Shown: positions 2,637 through 48,194 of the stretch, one piece after another
Layout: each line of letters starts with the position of its first letter
Position numbering within the stretch: position 1 is the stretch's first letter
The notes under the pieces: model-generated
Told to the model about the DNA's origin: nothing
The model's input: the letters and a program-made list of their open reading frames with translations, nothing else
Databases searched by the model: none
Origin: Escherichia phage ELT1
Reading direction: 5' to 3' (one strand)
Length of the DNA: 64,000 bases
Sequence record: MZ892903.1
Made by a program: the position numbers and the translations under genes

Positions 2637-2725
2637 CGGTTTTGTGAAAAAATTTTTAATGAATTCCAGAGGTCCAGAATCATCTATTTTTCCTAAGTAT
2701 AGATTTATATTACTTGTATGAAAAA

Positions 2726-2741
2726 GGGACCCGGAGGTCCC
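2726..2741 (-). terminator. GC hairpin (GGGACC UCCG GGUCCC) plus U-run just after gene 43 stop
   Basis: Perfect 6-bp stem, 4-nt loop, followed by UUUUU on minus-strand transcript. Confidence 0.5.
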
Positions 2742-2754
2742 TAGATTTATTCTA

Positions 2755-5451
2755 TCAGCCAAACAGGAAGTCTAACGAAGCTTTTTCTTCATAGTCCATG
2801 CCAGCCGATTCACACATACCTGCAAGCGGTTTAACAAACGATTTTTGGAACAAAGTTGAATGGTCAATCCAAGATAGTACATCAGAACGAATTTCTTTTG
2901 GAAGTTCTGTACCCGATGGCCAAGCAATGCACTTGTCACCAAATGGATTTCCTTCACGTAATGGAAGAACCATTACTTTATTTCCATCCAAAATTGGAGC
3001 TACACCTAGACCACTAACAGCTCGACGATAAGTTAGCACACCGCGAATATGGAATGGGCATTTAAACCCTGGCCAACCTTTATCATCATATTTCGCTATA
3101 TCGTTCGCGGTTTTTACTTCAGCAATAACTTTATAGTCAAGTTGACGATATTCTTTCTCGAAGTTCTTGTAGTATTCTTGGACGGACTCTTCACCTTCCT
3201 GAAGAATACGACGAATACTTTCTTCGAGAGCTTCTTGTACTGCTTTTGGTGTTGAACTCTGCTGAGTTTCCATACCCATGATTTTTAAATGCGGTTCAGC
3301 AAATCGCTTATCTTCCATATCATAAACGTTCAGAGCATAACGCTTTTTCGCTTTCCAAAATCCACCAACACCCTTTGAACCAAGTGGAGGGCAAGAAATA
3401 GCTTCACGGTCCATATGCATCAGATGCTCGCGGTTATTCATATAATCACATAACTCACGATATGCAACATCAATCATAGGTTCCATCTTTTTCTTACCGA
3501 ACTGATTCATAAATTCAACCAAATCGTTCTGCTCTTTGAATCGGTCAAGACCAACTTTTTCAATAACTTTATCTACACAAACATATACCGAATCAGTATC
3601 ACCTGCTGCAATGAAATCTTCGCCATTAGTTCCGCATACTTTATTCAGATATTCATTAATTTTACGAGCAATCCACTGAATACCAACTTGGCCGAAAATT
3701 GTGATAGCAGTAGCATTTCGCAAATCATAGTAACGGAAATGAATATTACCAAGAGCACCGTAAAGACTGTTAATGAGAATTTTACGGTTCAGCTGATTTG
3801 TGTTAGCAAGTGTAGCAGCTTTTTCACATTCCTCAATCAGACTATTGAGAACAGATTCGGTGTAATTCGATAGTTCATTTAAGAAATCATCACTGAACTT
3901 AACATATCGTTCAACTTCTGGTTTAGTTGAACAAGACCCTGCGCCTTTCATAATAATCTTTTTAATAGCTTCGGCATTCATTTCTTCAGCGAACATTTTC
4001 TTTTTCCAATCTTTACGCTGGAAAAATACTTTAGCGATTTCCTTTGGAATGATACCTTCTTGATGCTTATCATACATCCATCCATTCGGAGAACAAGAAT
4101 ATTCATCACTCGGTTTAGGAGCTGTTCCTGCAATATATTCATGAATTGGATGAACTTTAAACTGCCCACGAATAGTCTCAGGACTAATGTTAACCTGACG
4201 AATAATGCTAGGATACAGAGACGTCAAGTCAAAACTCATAATATATCGACGAGCAATTGGTTTAGGTTCAAACACAAATGCACCCGGAAAACTTTGTTTA
4301 ACGTGCGAACCCTGTTGAGGAATAACCTTATGTTCACCTTTCAATGAGTTAAAAATAATAGCATCCCAAGTTTTAATAGGACTCATTACACCAGAAAAAG
4401 GCATTTTAGCGTAATAAGACATACTTAAAACTAGATCGATAAACCCGCGAATTTTATCAATTGCTTGAACTGATTCTACGTCAATGATGTTATAACTAAT
4501 GTATCGTTGATGATTAGTCTCACGAAGTTTATTAATAGGACCGTCGTATGGTAATTTACCTTTTTTGGTTTCATGTTGAGCAACTGATTCCAAAGAGAAT
4601 GACGGCAAATTAGTAAAAGCAAATTTCTTGTACAAATCTAAATAATCAAGAATAGATACACCATCAATAGAATAAATTTCTTTGCTGCCGTACATATTTT
4701 GAATTAGTTTAGATTTTACTCGACCGATTGGAGAGAAGCGTTTCATACTACGTTCACCGAGAACCATTTTAACGCGATTCATGATATACGGAACGTCAAA
4801 TCCCTCAATATTCCAACCAGTAAAAATAGCAGGTCGTTTCTGTTCCCAGAGATTGATATATTCCATGAGCATATCACGCTCATTATCGAATGGCATATAA
4901 ATTACTCGGTCAAGAATTTCTTGAGGAACTTCATCACCACCTTCACAGTCAAGCTTAGCAGCTAACTTTGCATCCCATTTTGATACTGAACCATACATTG
5001 AATTCAAAAGGTCGAAAACATAAAAACGATCGTCAATTGAATCATAATGAGTGATAGCATCAATTTCATATTCTGCTTTCATTGGGTCAGGAAATTTATC
5101 GCCAGTAACCTCAATGTCACAGTTAGCTACACGAACAAATTTTCGGTCATAAACAATTTCTGAACCATACGTATCACTGATATAAGCGAGTTTAAAATCG
5201 TTCATACCAAGAGCTTCGAGACCGATGTCTTCCATTCGCTTCATCCAATCTCGTGCATCTTTCATTGATGGAAATTTTTGAGGAGCGCAATTTTTACCAT
5301 AGATGTCTTTATATTTTGACTCTTCCTTACAATGCCTAAACATAGTCGGAAGATATTCTACTTCACGAGTACGTTCCTTTCCGTTTTCATCAATATAACG
5401 CTCAACAATGTTATTTCCGACTGTTTCAATAGAGATATAAAATTCTTTCAT
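2755..5451 (-). CDS. 43: DNA polymerase (family B) with 3'-5' exonuclease
   Basis: 898 aa, same length as T4 gp43; motifs DIE (exo), SLYPS, YGDTDS present. Confidence 0.97.
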   Translation of the reverse strand: MKEFYISIETVGNNIVERYIDENGKERTREVEYLPTMFRHCKEESKYKDIYGKNCAPQKFPSMKDARDWMKRMEDIGLEALGMNDFKLAYISDTYGSEIVYDRKFVRVANCDIEVTGDKFPDPMKAEYEIDAITHYDSIDDRFYVFDLLNSMYGSVSKWDAKLAAKLDCEGGDEVPQEILDRVIYMPFDNERDMLMEYINLWEQKRPAIFTGWNIEGFDVPYIMNRVKMVLGERSMKRFSPIGRVKSKLIQNMYGSKEIYSIDGVSILDYLDLYKKFAFTNLPSFSLESVAQHETKKGKLPYDGPINKLRETNHQRYISYNIIDVESVQAIDKIRGFIDLVLSMSYYAKMPFSGVMSPIKTWDAIIFNSLKGEHKVIPQQGSHVKQSFPGAFVFEPKPIARRYIMSFDLTSLYPSIIRQVNISPETIRGQFKVHPIHEYIAGTAPKPSDEYSCSPNGWMYDKHQEGIIPKEIAKVFFQRKDWKKKMFAEEMNAEAIKKIIMKGAGSCSTKPEVERYVKFSDDFLNELSNYTESVLNSLIEECEKAATLANTNQLNRKILINSLYGALGNIHFRYYDLRNATAITIFGQVGIQWIARKINEYLNKVCGTNGEDFIAAGDTDSVYVCVDKVIEKVGLDRFKEQNDLVEFMNQFGKKKMEPMIDVAYRELCDYMNNREHLMHMDREAISCPPLGSKGVGGFWKAKKRYALNVYDMEDKRFAEPHLKIMGMETQQSSTPKAVQEALEESIRRILQEGEESVQEYYKNFEKEYRQLDYKVIAEVKTANDIAKYDDKGWPGFKCPFHIRGVLTYRRAVSGLGVAPILDGNKVMVLPLREGNPFGDKCIAWPSGTELPKEIRSDVLSWIDHSTLFQKSFVKPLAGMCESAGMDYEEKASLDFLFG

Positions 5452-34191: not shown

Positions 34192-34394
34192 TATTCTTCT
34201 ACGTGCTGTTTACGACCTTTCTTATCAATAAAGGTATATTCAACGAATGTTCCAATATAATCTTTATCTACATCATGTGGACTATTAATTGGACATTTAG
34301 TACGGCAAATGCGTTCCCATTGACGAATAATTACTGCCTTATTCTTTGGGTCATACGGATGTGGATAATGTATATTCATAATAACGGTTCCCAA
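34167..34394 (-). CDS. hypothetical protein
   Basis: 75 aa ORF. Confidence 0.35.
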   Translation of the reverse strand: MGTVIMNIHYPHPYDPKNKAVIIRQWERICRTKCPINSPHDVDKDYIGTFVEYTFIDKKGRKQHVEEYCLKVTWL

Positions 34395-34843
34395 TCAACA
34401 ATCACAATTTCTAATTTAGAGGAATATGTATCTAAAATCCCCTCAATAATATCCCAGTTCCCTTTACCTATGCCTGCACCAATCCTAGGCATATAGATTG
34501 TAGGTTTAATCAGTTTATTTTCACCAAACTCATTTAATTCTAACATACAATTCATTAAAGCGGAATACTCAAAATTTGGCCCTGGTTGAAATTGAGTATA
34601 AAGGTTGAAGCAATACGCTTTATGAGTCCTAAAGTATTTTTCATAGACTGAGTAAGAACCAAGTTTAGTTACATCACCCCATTCAGTCTGTAGTTTATCA
34701 GCTTCCAGAATTTTAGGGAAAGCTTTGGTTAATTGACCTGCGACTCCAGCTTTCATCGTATGAAAACAATTGCATCCATGCGCAATATTTTTACCTTCAG
34801 CGAAAAGGGCGACAATATCGCCCTTGATATATTTTACAATCAT
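34376..34843 (-). CDS. macro-domain-like protein (predicted ADP-ribose binding or processing)
   Basis: 155 aa; GDIV...NIAHGCNC...KAGVAGQL and PRIGAGIGKG resemble macro-domain binding loops. Confidence 0.5.
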   Translation of the reverse strand: MIVKYIKGDIVALFAEGKNIAHGCNCFHTMKAGVAGQLTKAFPKILEADKLQTEWGDVTKLGSYSVYEKYFRTHKAYCFNLYTQFQPGPNFEYSALMNCMLELNEFGENKLIKPTIYMPRIGAGIGKGNWDIIEGILDTYSSKLEIVIVDWEPLL

Positions 34844-35187: not shown

Positions 35188-35725
35188 TTACTATTTCCAA
35201 AAGTTTATTATTTTTAAGGTAATTAGCCTTTTCTAGGACTTCAGAAGCATATTTAGAACCAGCTTTAACATTCCATCCCGAATTATAAGAGGATATTGCT
35301 TTTCTTATATCTCCCTTGTGTATATTTAACCAATAAGAAAGTTCAATGTACGCCCAGGAAGCTGAATTGGACCGTTTATTCAACATTCTTTTTATTTCAG
35401 CATCGGTCATATTATAACCAAGTTCCTTAACTCTTGCTCGCATAGTAGGCAAATAATTTTGGAACATTCCGTAGGCGTGATGCTTTGGTTTAGATTTTAA
35501 ATTAACTCCGCCAGAGCTTTCTTGCCATAAAATAGCAGCCATTATATGACCTAATCCGCTCTTGTGGATATTTTTATGTGTTTTATATTTTCCATCCTTA
35601 GAAAATTGTTCCCCGAATTGATACGCGTAACGCATGTTATCGAGTTGGACATTACTGAAAGTATGCTCGGAGCTATGTGCCATCATAGAAATGGCCAATA
35701 GACCAGCGAGTAGTGCTTTTCTCAT
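35180..35725 (-). CDS. periplasmic lytic-transglycosylase-like protein
   Basis: 181 aa; signal peptide; SLT-like motifs (WQESS, YGMFQ, YNSG). Confidence 0.5.
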   Translation of the reverse strand: MRKALLAGLLAISMMAHSSEHTFSNVQLDNMRYAYQFGEQFSKDGKYKTHKNIHKSGLGHIMAAILWQESSGGVNLKSKPKHHAYGMFQNYLPTMRARVKELGYNMTDAEIKRMLNKRSNSASWAYIELSYWLNIHKGDIRKAISSYNSGWNVKAGSKYASEVLEKANYLKNNKLLEIVND

Positions 35726-35732
35726 GCTTACC

Positions 35733-36194
35733 TCATTGAGTTTTAATTACTGCTTTAGAAGCCTTTCCTGGTAAACGACGACTGTTAATAATTGCCATCC
35801 TGCATTGAAGCGACGGGTCTTTGAACTTCGCATTAGGTTTACAAACTGTAAATCCAAGCCAAAGATTTCCATCTGTGATTTCTAGACGTCCAGGACGATA
35901 TTCAACCCCATCAATAAAATCCTCGTCAATGTCAGGACGCGGAGGCATACTCAGGAATTCATTAACTTCTAAAACATGGTCTTTTATTTTATGGAATAAT
36001 TCAAAAACATATGTCTCATCAATCTCCCGTTGAATTGCGCGATCAAGAAGATGTTGAGAATATTTTAGATGAAACGATGAGACCCCTGCTGCTTTTGATG
36101 CCTCACGAATCTCATTGTTAATTTGACGAAACTCCGACTCAAAGTGACGACGGAGCTTATTTCGACGAATAAAAACTTCTGTGTTGATAGTCAT
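35733..36194 (-). CDS. regB: endoribonuclease RegB
   Basis: 153 aa as in T4 RegB; early promoter just upstream. Confidence 0.8.
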   Translation of the reverse strand: MTINTEVFIRRNKLRRHFESEFRQINNEIREASKAAGVSSFHLKYSQHLLDRAIQREIDETYVFELFHKIKDHVLEVNEFLSMPPRPDIDEDFIDGVEYRPGRLEITDGNLWLGFTVCKPNAKFKDPSLQCRMAIINSRRLPGKASKAVIKTQ

Positions 36195-36221
36195 GTTATT
36201 CTCCTCTTAACTGATAGAAAA

Positions 36222-36250
36222 ATTATACCACAGTCAAGAGGAAAAGTAAA
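36222..36250 (-). promoter_or_regulatory. T4-type early promoter (TTTACT-N17-TATAAT)
   Basis: Consensus upstream of regB. Confidence 0.55.
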
Positions 36251-36253
36251 CAA

Positions 36254-36574
36254 TTATTCTTTAAATCTAATCAATTTATTCATAGACTTTGAAACTTCTG
36301 CACGAACCTCATGTAGATTTTTGAGCTGTTCAAGACGCTGCTCATAGTAAGCAATTTCATCTTCTTCGAGACAGTCCTGTGAATCTTCTTTAAGATAACG
36401 TGCATAGTCCTGGAAAGCGTTACGAACTACTTCCTGGAAGTCATCAAGACTTTGAATTTTCTTAGGAGCAACAGATATACGACGAGGGGCAGTATAATAC
36501 TCATAACCAAACCCTGCGCTTAATTGAGCCATTAGTATTTTTCCTCTGGTTGGAACACAGCACGGCAAGCCCAC
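36254..36574 (-). CDS. hypothetical protein (vs.x)
   Basis: 106 aa ORF; true start may be an internal ATG. Confidence 0.4.
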
Positions 36575-36798
36575 ATACTGGCTTCTTTGAGTTTCGTTTT
36601 AGCAATAGTTAACTGATCGAGGCTTTCAGCATAATTCTTCGCGAATTCACAGTCTTCACAATTATCTAGTGCTTCCCAGAATTCATCGTATAAAGCATCA
36701 AAGATAAGTCCTAAACGAACTTCAGCGTCTTTAATAGCATTCACTTTACCGATTTTCTCTTCAGTATGTGGCTTATAACCCTTAATATCTTCAATCAT
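36532..36798 (-). CDS. hypothetical small acidic protein (vs.x)
   Basis: 88 aa ORF. Confidence 0.4.
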
Positions 36799-37012
36799 AT
36801 TTTACTTCCTCACCAGTACCTAAATCATATTCAACTAAACGAATAGGCTCATGAATTCCATATCCTTGAACAGAAATTTCTGTCGTGGGATAAATTCCAT
36901 CAATATCACCCATGTTCCATGCTTCGTTAAATTGCTGTTCGCCTGAATTACTAAACCATTCGGCGAAAGCATTTAGCACATCTTCAGAACCTTCAATAAT
37001 TATCTTTGCCAT
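36791..37012 (-). CDS. hypothetical small acidic protein (vs.x)
   Basis: 73 aa ORF. Confidence 0.4.
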   Translation of the reverse strand: MAKIIIEGSEDVLNAFAEWFSNSGEQQFNEAWNMGDIDGIYPTTEISVQGYGIHEPIRLVEYDLGTGEEVKYD

Positions 37013-37374
37013 TACAAACTCTCGGTAAAGGTACGAGCGATAACGTCGCGCTGCTGTTCCGGAGTCAGAGAGTTAAAGCGAACTGCATAACCGGATACAC
37101 GGATGGTCAGCTGCGGATATTTTTCCGGATGCTTAACTGCATCTTCCAGAGTTTCACGACGCAGAACGTTAACGTTCAGGTGTTGACCACCTTCAATTTT
37201 AACTGTAGGCTGTTGCTCAATTTCAATTTCACGGGCATGCAAACCATAGAAAATTTCTGGGTCTACAAAAGAGTCCTCTTTAAAGGTTTTAGAGACAATA
37301 ATTCGTGCTTGAATACCATCTTCAAAATAAATAGTACCTTTATGTGTGCCTTCAAGAATTTGATATGCTTTCAT
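37012..37374 (-). CDS. autonomous glycyl-radical cofactor, GrcA/YfiD-like
   Basis: 120 aa; C-terminal RVSGYAVRF glycyl-radical signature. Confidence 0.8.
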
Positions 37375-37381
37375 ATAAACC

Positions 37382-37762
37382 TCAATTAGAAAATAAATTT
37401 ATCCAAGATTGTTCTTTAATTAAAAATGGCTCAGAATCATATGCCATTAAACTTTGGGTGATTAGTCCTTTAAAAGGCCCATCAATAAATTCCATGGTAA
37501 AATATGGAATTTTATTCATTAGCCGTGCATTAGGAGCAGTACACAAAACTCTGCATCCTTTGAATACGCCTTTTTGTAATTTGTATTGCTTAGGATAAAA
37601 TTCGCTCAAGACGTTGTTATTTGCCAAAATTTCAAAATGATTCACTAATTTATTTTTAATAGTTTTTGGCGAAAAATAAAGATATTCGAAAAGTTGCGTG
37701 TCTGTCATCATTGCATTCCGATTATGAAAAACTGTGGACGAGTAATACCACCAATGCAGCAT
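37382..37762 (-). CDS. hypothetical protein
   Basis: 126 aa ORF; overlaps the upstream ORF, start uncertain. Confidence 0.35.
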
Positions 37763-38295
37763 TTACTATTGCAACAGTGGTGCACAGTTTCAATATGAAT
37801 ATCGTAAATTTTATCCATATCAGGAGATTTGACAGGCTCATCAATTATATACAAAATCCGCGAAAGCGATAAACCTCTGAACTTGCTTCCTTTATTACCG
37901 ATAAAACTGCGCACAGAATCAGTAAATAAACGAAAACGTATATCATCATTAGAATAACGCGAAAATTCCTTTTTGATGCTATTTGCAGAAATTTTAGCGT
38001 AAGCTGAAGTATTAGAAAGAACAATAACTGTTCCACCGTCATACAACCAATTAGCGGCAAAATTAGTTACTGCAGTTGATTTACCGGATTGACGTCCACC
38101 ATCTAGTCGAAGTGTGCAATACTGCTTAAGTAAGTCTTCAAATGGCGGGATATAATCGTTTTTACAAATTTCTTCTACTCTAGCATCAGAATGGTGTGTA
38201 AAAGCATTCATCAGGGATAGATAAGGACCAGTTAAAAATGTTCTCATTTTGTTCTCTCTAGGTTTGGGCCATTCCATGGCGCATGAATTGTCCAT
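37708..38295 (-). CDS. small P-loop NTPase, function unknown
   Basis: 195 aa; Walker A GGRQSGKST and Walker B ILYIIDE. Confidence 0.5.
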   Translation of the reverse strand: MDNSCAMEWPKPRENKMRTFLTGPYLSLMNAFTHHSDARVEEICKNDYIPPFEDLLKQYCTLRLDGGRQSGKSTAVTNFAANWLYDGGTVIVLSNTSAYAKISANSIKKEFSRYSNDDIRFRLFTDSVRSFIGNKGSKFRGLSLSRILYIIDEPVKSPDMDKIYDIHIETVHHCCNSKCCIGGITRPQFFIIGMQ

Positions 38296-38388
38296 TTCTG
38301 TATTTACCCATTACCGCACTTGGGCTCGACCTTATTACAGGTTGGCGGGAATCCCTCACAGAATCATGAGGTCCAGGTTGTTCCCATA

Positions 38389-38862
38389 TTATTTGAACGA
38401 TTTAACGTACTGAATAGAACCTTTACTATTCACGAAAGCGATTTTACCATTTTTATTATACATGGTAGCAGTACGCTGATAGCCATAAGTTTGCTTACCA
38501 GATTGATAACCAACTAATGCAAAATTATCTTCACCCATTTTATTCTGTTTAGCGCGAATGCGTTCATGACCATGTGCCATAAGAACCTTAGCATCACCAG
38601 TTGCAATGGATCGACGAGTTTTTTCATCTTCAACTGTATTAACAAAGTCGTCAAATGAATCAAATTTAGCATGAGATTTATTATACAGTTTTCCATCTAC
38701 TGCATAATTATATCCCTGTACATCCATCTCAACTTCTGTACCATCATCCAATACAGCAGTGATTTTCTGTCCTTTTTTAAATTTCAAAAGATCAGTAAAA
38801 GATTCAGCAATAATTTGAGAATTAATAGCTGCTTCAGTAATAAATTCTTGATATGTTTTCAT
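38389..38862 (-). CDS. internal (capsid-injected) protein, variant ip gene
   Basis: 157 aa; N-terminal capsid-targeting sequence MKTYQEFITEA with prohead-protease site ITE/A; adjacent to lysozyme e. Confidence 0.6.
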   Translation of the reverse strand: MKTYQEFITEAAINSQIIAESFTDLLKFKKGQKITAVLDDGTEVEMDVQGYNYAVDGKLYNKSHAKFDSFDDFVNTVEDEKTRRSIATGDAKVLMAHGHERIRAKQNKMGEDNFALVGYQSGKQTYGYQRTATMYNKNGKIAFVNSKGSIQYVKSFK

Positions 38863-38921
38863 GTGTTTCCTTTAAATGTAAATATTTTAATTGGTAATTG
38901 TCTATTCAAGTAACTGTGAAT

Positions 38922-38950
38922 ATACTATCACAATTCTAAGAGAAAGTAAA
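38922..38950 (-). promoter_or_regulatory. T4-type early promoter (TTTACT-N17-TAGTAT)
   Basis: Consensus upstream of the ip gene. Confidence 0.5.
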
Positions 38951-38955
38951 CAGCT

Positions 38956-39450
<495 letters not shown>

Positions 39451-44156: not shown

Positions 44157-44232
44157 TGGTGCCTCTAGAAAGATTTGAACTCTCACCATTAACCTTAGAA
44201 CGATTATATGCTATCCATTACACTATAGAGGC
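44157..44232 (-). tRNA. tRNA-Arg (anticodon UCU), CCA encoded
   Basis: Manual fold: acceptor GCCTCTA/TAGAGGC, anticodon loop GTTCTAA, T-loop GTTCAAATC. Confidence 0.75.
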
Positions 44233-44889
44233 AATTAAATTATTTACAATATCTTCTTTATAAACTTCAGCATAATGAAGTTCATATATTTCCCATCCTA
44301 ATGATTTTATAATATCATGGCGTTCTTTATAATAAGGGGCCAAAATCTTTTTCTTAGGATTGGAGTAATGTTGGTTTCCATTAACTTCAATAATAATCTT
44401 TTTATCTATTAAAGCAATATCCGCGCAATACGCTCGGTTTTTAACCGGTTGGTATTCTTCAATAAATGAAATTCCGTTTTCTATTAATTTAGATTTCAAA
44501 AATTCACAAGGCACAGATTTAAATTTTGTATTTTTCTTCCAAGGATGTTTATCGGGGTTTTCATTCAACCATTTTTTCCGAGCATTAGATATTTTTATTC
44601 TAGATTCCTCAGAGTGTTCTCTACCTAATGAAGCGGCTGACCATTTTTGTCTAGTCTCTTCCGAAATTACTACAGGAACACCAGTCTTTTTAGATACAAC
44701 ATACTGGTTTAAATTACCTGAAGCTATACGTGCTTTATTCATTGCTGCAATGGCTGATTTAGAACTTTCTTTATACAATTCCAATTTAGGGTTGGATTTA
44801 CACCATCTAGTGTGGTTAGCCATCCATCCTTTAGGTTTATTAGAAATATCAAATTCCATATTACAATGTTTACAAATTCTCATTACCAA
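44218..44889 (-). CDS. homing-endonuclease-like protein with Zn finger, NUMOD3 motif and C-terminal DUF559/Vsr-like nuclease domain (segB position)
   Basis: 223 aa; CKHC...HTRWC; SEETRQKWSAASLGREHSEESRIKIS; C-terminal YCADIALID...IIEVNG...GWEIYELHY. Confidence 0.55.
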   Translation of the reverse strand: MVMRICKHCNMEFDISNKPKGWMANHTRWCKSNPKLELYKESSKSAIAAMNKARIASGNLNQYVVSKKTGVPVVISEETRQKWSAASLGREHSEESRIKISNARKKWLNENPDKHPWKKNTKFKSVPCEFLKSKLIENGISFIEEYQPVKNRAYCADIALIDKKIIIEVNGNQHYSNPKKKILAPYYKERHDIIKSLGWEIYELHYAEVYKEDIVNNLIASIV

Positions 44890-44957
44890 TTATCTCCTAT
44901 AAAATATAGGAGTATTTATTATTTGGATAGAGCACTTAATTTACTTCGTTTAAATTA

Positions 44958-45029
44958 CTGGCGCACTTGGACTCGAACCAAGATAAAGGAGTTAACAGCT
45001 CCCCGTAATAACCTTTATACGATGCACCA
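44958..45029 (-). tRNA. tRNA-like gene, anticodon GUU (Asn) by manual fold
   Basis: T-arm CTTGG-TTCGAGT-CCAAG, anticodon loop CTGTTAA, acceptor TGGTGCA/TGCGCCA; no encoded CCA. Confidence 0.5.
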
Positions 45030-45035
45030 TTTGTT

Positions 45036-45110
45036 TGGTGACCCTGGCTGGTTTCGATCCAGCTACCTATCAGTTATGAGCTGACAGCTCTCCCATTGAG
45101 CTACAGGGCC
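45036..45110 (-). tRNA. tRNA-Ile/Met (anticodon CAU), CCA encoded
   Basis: Acceptor GGCCCTG/CAGGGTC, D-arm TAGCTCAATGGGAGAGC, anticodon loop CTCATAA. Confidence 0.75.
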
Positions 45111-45116
45111 TTGATA

Positions 45117-45189
45117 TGCTGATTGACGGAATCGAACCGCCGACGTCCTCATTACAAGTGAGGTGCTCTACCTACTGAGCTAAATCAGC
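45117..45189 (-). tRNA. tRNA-Thr (anticodon UGU)
   Basis: Acceptor GCTGATT/AATCAGC, anticodon loop CTTGTAA, T-loop GGTTCGATTCC. Confidence 0.75.
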
Positions 45190-45196
45190 GAAATTA

Positions 45197-45283
45197 CGGA
45201 GGCGATAGGATTTGAACCTATGAGTCGCCGGAGCGACTGCCGGTTTTCAAGACCGGTGCATTAAACCACTCTGCCACGCCTCC
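45197..45283 (-). tRNA. tRNA-Ser (anticodon UGA), long variable arm
   Basis: Acceptor GGAGGCG/CGCCTCC, anticodon loop CTTGAAA, extra arm, T-loop GGTTCAAATCC. Confidence 0.75.
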
Positions 45284-45285
45284 AG

Positions 45286-45359
45286 TCTCCGTGGCAGGAT
45301 TTGAACCTACGACATTCTGCTCCCAAAGCAGACGCTCTACCAAACTGAGCTACACGGAG
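45286..45359 (-). tRNA. tRNA-Pro (anticodon UGG)
   Basis: Acceptor CTCCGTG/CACGGAG, anticodon loop TTTGGGA. Confidence 0.75.
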
Positions 45360-45369
45360 TAAATTAAAT

Positions 45370-45443
<74 letters not shown>

Positions 45444-45448
45444 AAATT

Positions 45449-45535
45449 TGGTGCGAGAAGTGGGACTCGAACCCACAAGGAAATCATTCCGCAGCATTTT
45501 AAGTGCTGTGCCTTTACCAATTTGACCATTCTCGC
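45449..45535 (-). tRNA. tRNA-Leu (anticodon UAA), long variable arm, CCA encoded
   Basis: Acceptor GCGAGAA/TTCTCGC, anticodon loop CTTAAAA, T-loop GGTTCGAGTCC. Confidence 0.75.
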
Positions 45536-45536
45536 G

Positions 45537-45609
45537 CTGGGAATAAAGGACTCGAACCTTTGCATCTAGCAGTCAAAGTGCTATGCCTTACCAACTTGGC
45601 TAATTCCCA
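45537..45609 (-). tRNA. tRNA-Gln (anticodon UUG)
   Basis: Acceptor TGGGAAT/ATTCCCA, anticodon loop CTTTGAC, T-loop GGTTCGAGTCC. Confidence 0.7.

Positions 45610-47509: not shown

Positions 47510-48194
<685 letters not shown>

Follow-up and report, generated by a model that had tools for sequence, protein, structure and literature searches.

Predicted immune-signal sponges Acb2 (Vs.4) and TadIV-1 (Vs.3), and the conserved acidic protein Vs.5, encoded next to regB in a T4-like Escherichia phage

Genes at the locus

The window is the whole stretch of DNA that was analysed, 64 kb (64,000 nucleotides) of Escherichia phage ELT1, and all coordinates refer to it. A megablast search of positions 35700-38900 against phage genomes returned 902 records, the top one being Escherichia phage HY03 (98.8% DNA identity), with RB14 and other T4-group phages at ~96.6% in the same search. 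On these matches the phage is classed as a Tequatrovirus, T4-like and closest to HY03. The open reading frame (ORF) list and the sequence from 34.5 to 39.5 kb give a tight run of genes, all on the minus strand, and we named them by synteny with the annotated T4 and RB14 loci, in which the order is tk.4, vs, vs.1, regB, vs.3, vs.4, vs.5, vs.6, vs.7, vs.8. The interval 36254-37012 is filled by three consecutive minus-strand ORFs, at 36791-37012 (73 aa), 36532-36798 (88 aa) and 36254-36574 (106 aa if read from a GTG codon), which by synteny are assigned as vs.5, vs.4 and vs.3, adjoining regB. The features to which the text refers are listed below.

35733-36194, minus strand: regB, endoribonuclease, 153 aa, the downstream neighbour (Pfam REGB_T4, E=1.4e-68; 99% identical to T4 and RB14 RegB)
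36222-36250, minus strand: sigma-70/T4 early-type promoter-like site (promoter scan and pattern search; consensus match only)
36254-36532, minus strand: vs.3, assigned as tadIV-1, 92 aa from ATG (T4 Vs.3, 98%; PDB 9WIW match; phrog_2037)
36532-36798, minus strand: vs.4, assigned as acb2, 88 aa (identical to Vs.4 of PDB 7UQ2; Pfam PF24729; synteny with T4 and RB14)
36791-37012, minus strand: vs.5, conserved acidic protein, 73 aa, pI 4.05 (phrog_1986; synteny)
37012-37374, minus strand: vs.6, GrcA-like autonomous glycyl-radical cofactor, 120 aa, the upstream neighbour (Pfam Gly_radical, E=2.5e-18; T4 annotation vs.6/GrcA)
47513-47968, minus strand: 57B, assigned as acb1, 152 aa (tblastn with T4 57B)

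The original prediction described three small acidic ORFs of 73 to 106 aa lying after regB, within an interval that in T4 extends to denV. The ORFs are there and all three are acidic, with pI values of 4.05 for vs.5, 4.66 for vs.4 and 5.23 for vs.3; the upper length, however, belongs to the maximal GTG-initiated ORF (pI 5.90), and the vs.3 gene itself encodes 92 aa. "After regB" is right in plus-strand coordinates, but by transcription the order is vs.5, vs.4, vs.3, regB, and the three genes are therefore upstream of regB. The far boundary differs from that of T4, as the interval here runs from regB to Ip4/e and the 64-kb window as a whole yielded no homolog of denV.

All three ORFs are genes and not chance ORFs, because homologs occur in hundreds of phage records (by tblastn, 1235 for Vs.4, 988 for Vs.5 and 720 for Vs.3), a Shine-Dalgarno-like GAGG/GAGAG stands a few bases upstream of each start, and the junctions overlap. 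A TAATG is shared by vs.6 and vs.5 and another by vs.4 and vs.3, and vs.5 and vs.4 overlap by 8 nt; these overlaps, including the 8-nt one, are compatible with translational coupling and would allow it. We consider it very probable that the interval consists of vs.5, vs.4 and vs.3 and that two of these genes encode sponges for host immune second messengers, and no result of the analysis speaks against either sponge assignment. The assignment is based on sequence identity or near-identity, on the retention of residues tested in the literature and on synteny, and the activities are taken from published work on T4.

The sole strong promoter-like site in the area has the T4 early-type form GTTTACT-17-TGgTATAAT and lies at 36250-36222, in the gap that separates vs.3 from regB. 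This candidate promoter would serve regB and not vs.3 to vs.5. For the vs.8-vs.3 block, simple early, middle or late consensus patterns gave no promoter, and strict patterns for the late (TATAAATA) and MotA-box middle promoters of T4 gave none on the minus strand from 35700 to 39100. The RegB target GGAG is absent from the vs.3-vs.8 stretch and occurs only in or just before regB, and there are no Rfam RNA families within 36254-37012. In published work, Vs.3 to Vs.8 were expressed from a 'vs.8 promoter' fragment in the TadIV-1 study (PMC13243611), and a transcriptome atlas places T4 acb1 and acb2 expression mostly in the middle or late period (bioRxiv 10.64898/2026.03.30.715471).

Vs.4 as Acb2

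A Vs.4/Acb2-type cyclic-nucleotide sponge had been expected among the three ORFs, an expectation to be dropped if none of the proteins aligned to Acb2 or Vs.4. The alignments bear the expectation out and single out the middle ORF, which is identical to T4 Vs.4 over 88 of 88 residues (PDB 7UQ2, six chains, E=1.9e-57) and passes Pfam PF24729, Acb2_Tad1_hairpin, with 71.4 bits against a gathering score of 27 (E=7e-20). Neither Vs.3 nor Vs.5 aligns to Acb2 in the PDB sequence search or in Pfam. This settles which ORF is Acb2, and the adjacent vs.3 is assigned as a second, independently characterised sponge. By sequence, vs.4 is the Acb2 ortholog, a cyclic-dinucleotide sponge whose predicted activity is carried over from the identical T4 protein, with which it also has in common its gene position between vs.5 and vs.3; there is no difference between the two proteins.

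Acb2 of phage PaMx33 ('p26', 8IXZ and 8H2J) gives a weak, near-full-length alignment to Vs.4 (8IXZ, E=0.026, residues 4-85), in which Vs.4 Y8 and K23 stand opposite PaMx33 Y11 and K26; Y11A and K26A are among the PaMx33 mutants listed in PMC10312549. The PaMx33 protein is ~24% identical to the T4-type protein and differs from it in function: cyclic trinucleotides are not ligands of the T4-type protein (PMC10312549). F82 is present in Vs.4, and the T4 numbering of Y37, A57, L60, D61, T64 and T68 fits its sequence.

Since the window protein is identical to that of T4, the published hexamer, binding spectrum and Panoptes liability should carry over. T4 Vs.4 is described, in the summary of Jenson et al. 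given by PMC10449767, as a hexamer with three cGAMP molecules, with isothermal titration calorimetry (ITC), interface mutants and in-vitro protection of CapV. Its KD for 3',3'-cGAMP is ~84 nM, and it accepts a broad range of cyclic dinucleotides but neither cA3 nor cAAG (PMC10312549). The bound 3',3'-cGAMP is not degraded, and CBASS is inhibited in infected cells, as published for T4 Vs.4 (PMC10449767, PMC10312549, PMC12657218). [quoted passage not shown] We propose that Vs.4 of the window would form the same interlocked homohexamer and bind three cyclic dinucleotides, one per dimer interface. With the signal sequestered in this way, the CapV phospholipase and other CBASS effectors would not reach the threshold for activation. 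The predicted cost is that the decoy nucleotide of Panoptes would be sequestered as well, which would trigger the Panoptes defence.

A separate observation concerns Salmonella phage STML-198, in which the Acb2 homolog is split over two frames (tblastn pieces 1-23 and 22-88; locus positions 2724-3001) and annotated as two tiny ORFs. Either the gene is a pseudogene with a frameshift or the sequence contains an error.

Vs.3 as TadIV-1

Vs.3 was renamed TadIV-1 in T4, where it is necessary and sufficient for escape from type IV Thoeris (PMC13243611, 2026, Nature Communications). The window protein is identical to it at 90 of 92 residues (98%), the only substitutions being V19I and T64E, both of which equal the residue found in the functional TadIV-1 of UPEC07. 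The structure of the UPEC07 protein, PDB 9WIW, matches Vs.3 with E=8.7e-38. TadIV-1 is a two-helix homodimer whose function depends on a flexible loop at the N-terminus: homologs of only ~70 aa show no activity, and mutation of R17, R18 or K24 impairs the T4 protein (PMC13243611). Vs.3 of the window is the 92-aa long form with this loop, its residues 1-24 are as in T4 except for V19I, and R17, R18 and K24 are invariant across the window, T4 and RB14 alignment; K25, E49 and H74 are also conserved. The near-identity, the long form, the retention of R17, R18 and K24 and the agreement of both substitutions with UPEC07 are our reasons for assigning Vs.3 as TadIV-1, with the same predicted activity as the near-identical T4 protein, which has the same position next to regB. 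UPEC07 TadIV-1 has 101 residues instead of 92, and both the window and T4 forms lack its 9 extra N-terminal-loop residues, including S23 and N24, while its K60 corresponds to S51 in Vs.3.

The length of the protein depends on the choice of start codon. The frame is open from a GTG at 36574, with a weak AAGAAG upstream of it, and a 106-aa product of the ORF 36254-36574 could be read from there. We regard this as exceedingly improbable: the 14 extra codons lie within vs.4 in a different frame, the annotations of T4 and RB14 use the ATG start, and the length of T4 TadIV-1 is given as 92 aa (PMC13243611). Moreover, the 9WIW chain begins with MAQ just as the 92-aa form does, aligning at residue 15 of the 106-aa ORF, and the ATG at 36532 has GAGGA ten bases upstream and lies in the TAATG shared with the vs.4 stop. 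We accordingly describe vs.3 as a 92-aa gene.

T4 TadIV-1 binds N7-cADPR, made by the TIR protein, with a KD of ~216 nM, and releases the intact signal on denaturation or proteolysis (PMC13243611). The ligand pose derives from Boltz-2 models and mutagenesis, as neither the loop nor the ligand has electron density (PMC13243611). By analogy, the flexible N-terminal loop of the Vs.3 homodimer, through R17, R18 and K24, would help to form two N7-cADPR pockets. Sequestration of N7-cADPR, the signal from the type IV Thoeris TIR protein, would then keep the caspase-like effector inactive. [quoted passage not shown]

Conservation of the gene order

The window proteins were compared by tblastn with the corresponding loci of phages from five other genera, Jiaodavirus, Gelderlandvirus, Dhakavirus, Marfavirus and Kanagawavirus. 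The order Vs.8-(Vs.7)-Vs.5-(Vs.6)-Vs.4-(Vs.3)-RegB-Vs.1 is kept in all five, and in four of them Vs.5 is immediately adjacent to Vs.4 or overlaps it, the overlap being 8-11 nt. Vs.3 is the most variable member, being missing from four of the five loci and present only in its short form in phage Q7622. This variability fits the published finding that TadIV-1 is less widely distributed (PMC13243611), and it fits the tblastn record counts, in which Vs.3 (720) falls below Vs.5 (988) and Vs.4 (1235).

Vs.5, a conserved acidic protein with a frameshifted T4 reference

The Acb2 and TadIV-1 assignments are not new, as both have been published for T4 proteins that are identical (Vs.4) or 98% identical (Vs.3). 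The residual novelty at the locus is Vs.5 alone, which is intact, widely conserved and mis-annotated in the T4 reference. Synteny identifies T4 Vs.5 (phrog_1986) as the ortholog, with ~97% DNA identity, yet the reference (NC_000866, 63381-63557) is annotated with 58 aa against 73 aa here. One base is missing from the reference after codon 17 (TTTCG-CGAG vs TTTCGCCGAG). The deletion is common only to X04567, AF158101 and NC_000866; the extra base is found in RB55 and RB59 and in all of the independently re-sequenced T4 isolates listed (T4T, KJ477684-6, MT984581, OL964735 and OZ records), and the window, RB14 and the re-sequenced T4 isolates have an intact 73-aa Vs.5. Because only these three records have the deletion and the re-sequenced isolates have the base, we take the frameshift to be, in all likelihood, a mistake of early sequencing, with a true Vs.5 length of 73 aa. 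If so, a one-base reference error hid the true length of the protein, and constructs based on the annotation may therefore never have expressed it intact.

Vs.5 is assigned to phrog_1986, a family of unknown function, and the 988 phage records with tblastn matches are mostly from Escherichia, Klebsiella, Shigella, Enterobacter and Salmonella phages. Searches of other kinds gave little. The PDB sequence search yielded nothing informative (best match SurE, E=0.2), Vs.5 has no Pfam family and no NCBIfam match, and literature searches for vs.5 found nothing. A Pfam match to UvsW_N (E=0.056) was rejected as chance, since only 1 of 45 family members has it. A profile search gathered 75 Vs.5-family proteins. 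Longer homologs of 102-164 aa have Vs.7-like or uncharacterised extensions; when the longer homologs were checked for fusions, the extensions contained no Pfam domain and none was fused to Acb2.

An exhaustive HMMER search with Vs.5 against 1.84 billion representatives returned only 16 matches, namely a few small phage proteins and repeat proteins. In the latter, long proteins of the FG-GAP/VCBS type, the matches fall in multiple stretches, and the conserved W-F-S-N-S-G-E-Q-x-F of Vs.5 (residues 17-46) resembles the repeat unit 'WFENNGSQSF'. We rejected these proteins as relatives, as only the short motif W-F-x-N-x-G-x-Q-x-F is common to both. The likeness is probably motif-level chance, because AlphaFold2 models the Vs.5 segment as a helix.

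Candidate roles of Vs.5

The AlphaFold2 monomer built from a 45-sequence alignment has a mean pLDDT of 85.6 and consists of a long helix (residues 10-33) followed by strands at 44-49 and 58-63. With 11 close sequences the pLDDT was 61, and that low-confidence model also has a strand at residues 2-7. Across the 45 homologs the conserved columns are F16, W19, F20, G24, E25, Q26, E30, G50, E61, Y62, D63, T66 and E68. There is no lysine or arginine among the invariant or near-invariant columns, which are aromatic, acidic or glycine, together with Q26 and T66. The protein as a whole has 15 D+E against 3 K+R, for a net charge of ~-12.

The position of vs.5 directly upstream of two sponge genes, its overlap with vs.4 in most of the other genera and its wide occurrence raise the question of whether the locus is a cassette of three sponges, with Vs.5 as the third protein that captures a nucleotide signal. 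Known sponges are short proteins, often <100 aa, that form homo-oligomers with positively charged pockets at their interfaces, the pocket of SPO1 Acb4 being an exception to the last trait (PMC12265669). At 73 aa, Vs.5 falls within the size range. The charge of the pocket was judged by a sequence proxy, the conservation of lysine or arginine, and not on a pocket, and by this proxy Vs.5 does not resemble the sponges. Sponge pockets are positive, and both Acb2 and TadIV-1 depend on Lys or Arg, and for this reason a sponge role is disfavoured for a protein in which acidic residues outnumber basic ones five to one and no K/R is conserved. The Vs.5 model has no fold similarity to Acb2, Tad1, Tad2, Acb4 or other solved structures. 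In a published test in which Vs.3 to Vs.8 were supplied one at a time on plasmids, vs.3 alone impaired type IV Thoeris immunity (PMC13243611), although the vs.5 construct in that test may have followed the faulty 58-aa annotation. Taken together, these points make a third sponge very unlikely.

Instead, we infer that Vs.5 may have an accessory role in which it binds to some other protein. Conserved, very acidic and with a predicted small alpha/beta fold, it would act as a partner-binding protein encoded immediately upstream of vs.4. One tentative form of this role, our preferred guess though held to be less likely than not, is that of a protein-binding inhibitor or nucleic-acid mimic, an acidic decoy that blocks a defence protein or a host protein that binds DNA or RNA. 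Decoys of this kind are known among small, very acidic phage proteins such as Ocr and Arn. The pI of 4.05 and the strong negative charge suit this role, as does the conserved surface motif of aromatic and acidic residues (F16-x2-W19-F20 ... G-E-Q ... E61-Y62-D63). The monomer fold is modelled confidently and has no enzyme-like relatives, and the gene sits in a block of accessory genes that already includes two anti-defence genes. However, Vs.5 has no similarity to known DNA mimics, and the synteny is broadly kept in T4-like phages, so that position alone says little. The more specific proposal that the accessory protein Vs.5 is a mechanistically different anti-defence or host-takeover factor working alongside Acb2 is rather doubtful.

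Other genes in the window

The window also encodes 57B, ~11 kb from the locus and identical to T4 57B at 152 of 152 residues (tblastn, E=4e-103). T4 57B is Acb1, an anti-CBASS enzyme that cleaves cyclic oligonucleotides (PMC10312549; bioRxiv 10.64898/2026.03.30.715471). Given this identity, the window is predicted to carry Acb1, Acb2 and TadIV-1 within ~12 kb. This HY03-like phage would thus match T4 in its genes against CBASS and type IV Thoeris (acb1, acb2 and tadIV-1), and this set helps to predict host range and sensitivity to decoy systems such as Panoptes. As a phage it differs from T4, being closest to HY03 and lacking denV, ipII and ipIII nearby. The stretch from vs.8 to e (38296-38955) has a single gene for an Ip4-type internal protein (38389-38862, minus strand, DUF7412), where T4 has denV, ipII and ipIII.

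Three further observations concern other parts of the window. Vs.8 (37708-38295, minus strand) is a 195-aa ORF, or 189 aa with the RB14 start, with weak matches of P-loop or terminase-large-subunit-like type (AAA_14, AAA_30 and Terminase_6N, E~0.01-0.04; phrog_2, 1.5e-6). The tk.4 ortholog (34376-34843, minus strand, 155 aa) corresponds to a T4 gene annotated with an A1pp phosphatase motif, which is macrodomain-like, and its match to DarG, an antitoxin with ADP-ribosyl glycohydrolase activity, is weak (E=1e-5; 25 bits, where the cut-off is 250); by sequence it could be another ADP-ribose-related counter-defence candidate. Finally, Rfam places nine tRNA genes at 44160-45609 on the minus strand, in the region of the T4 tRNA cluster, for which the T4 reference annotates eight.
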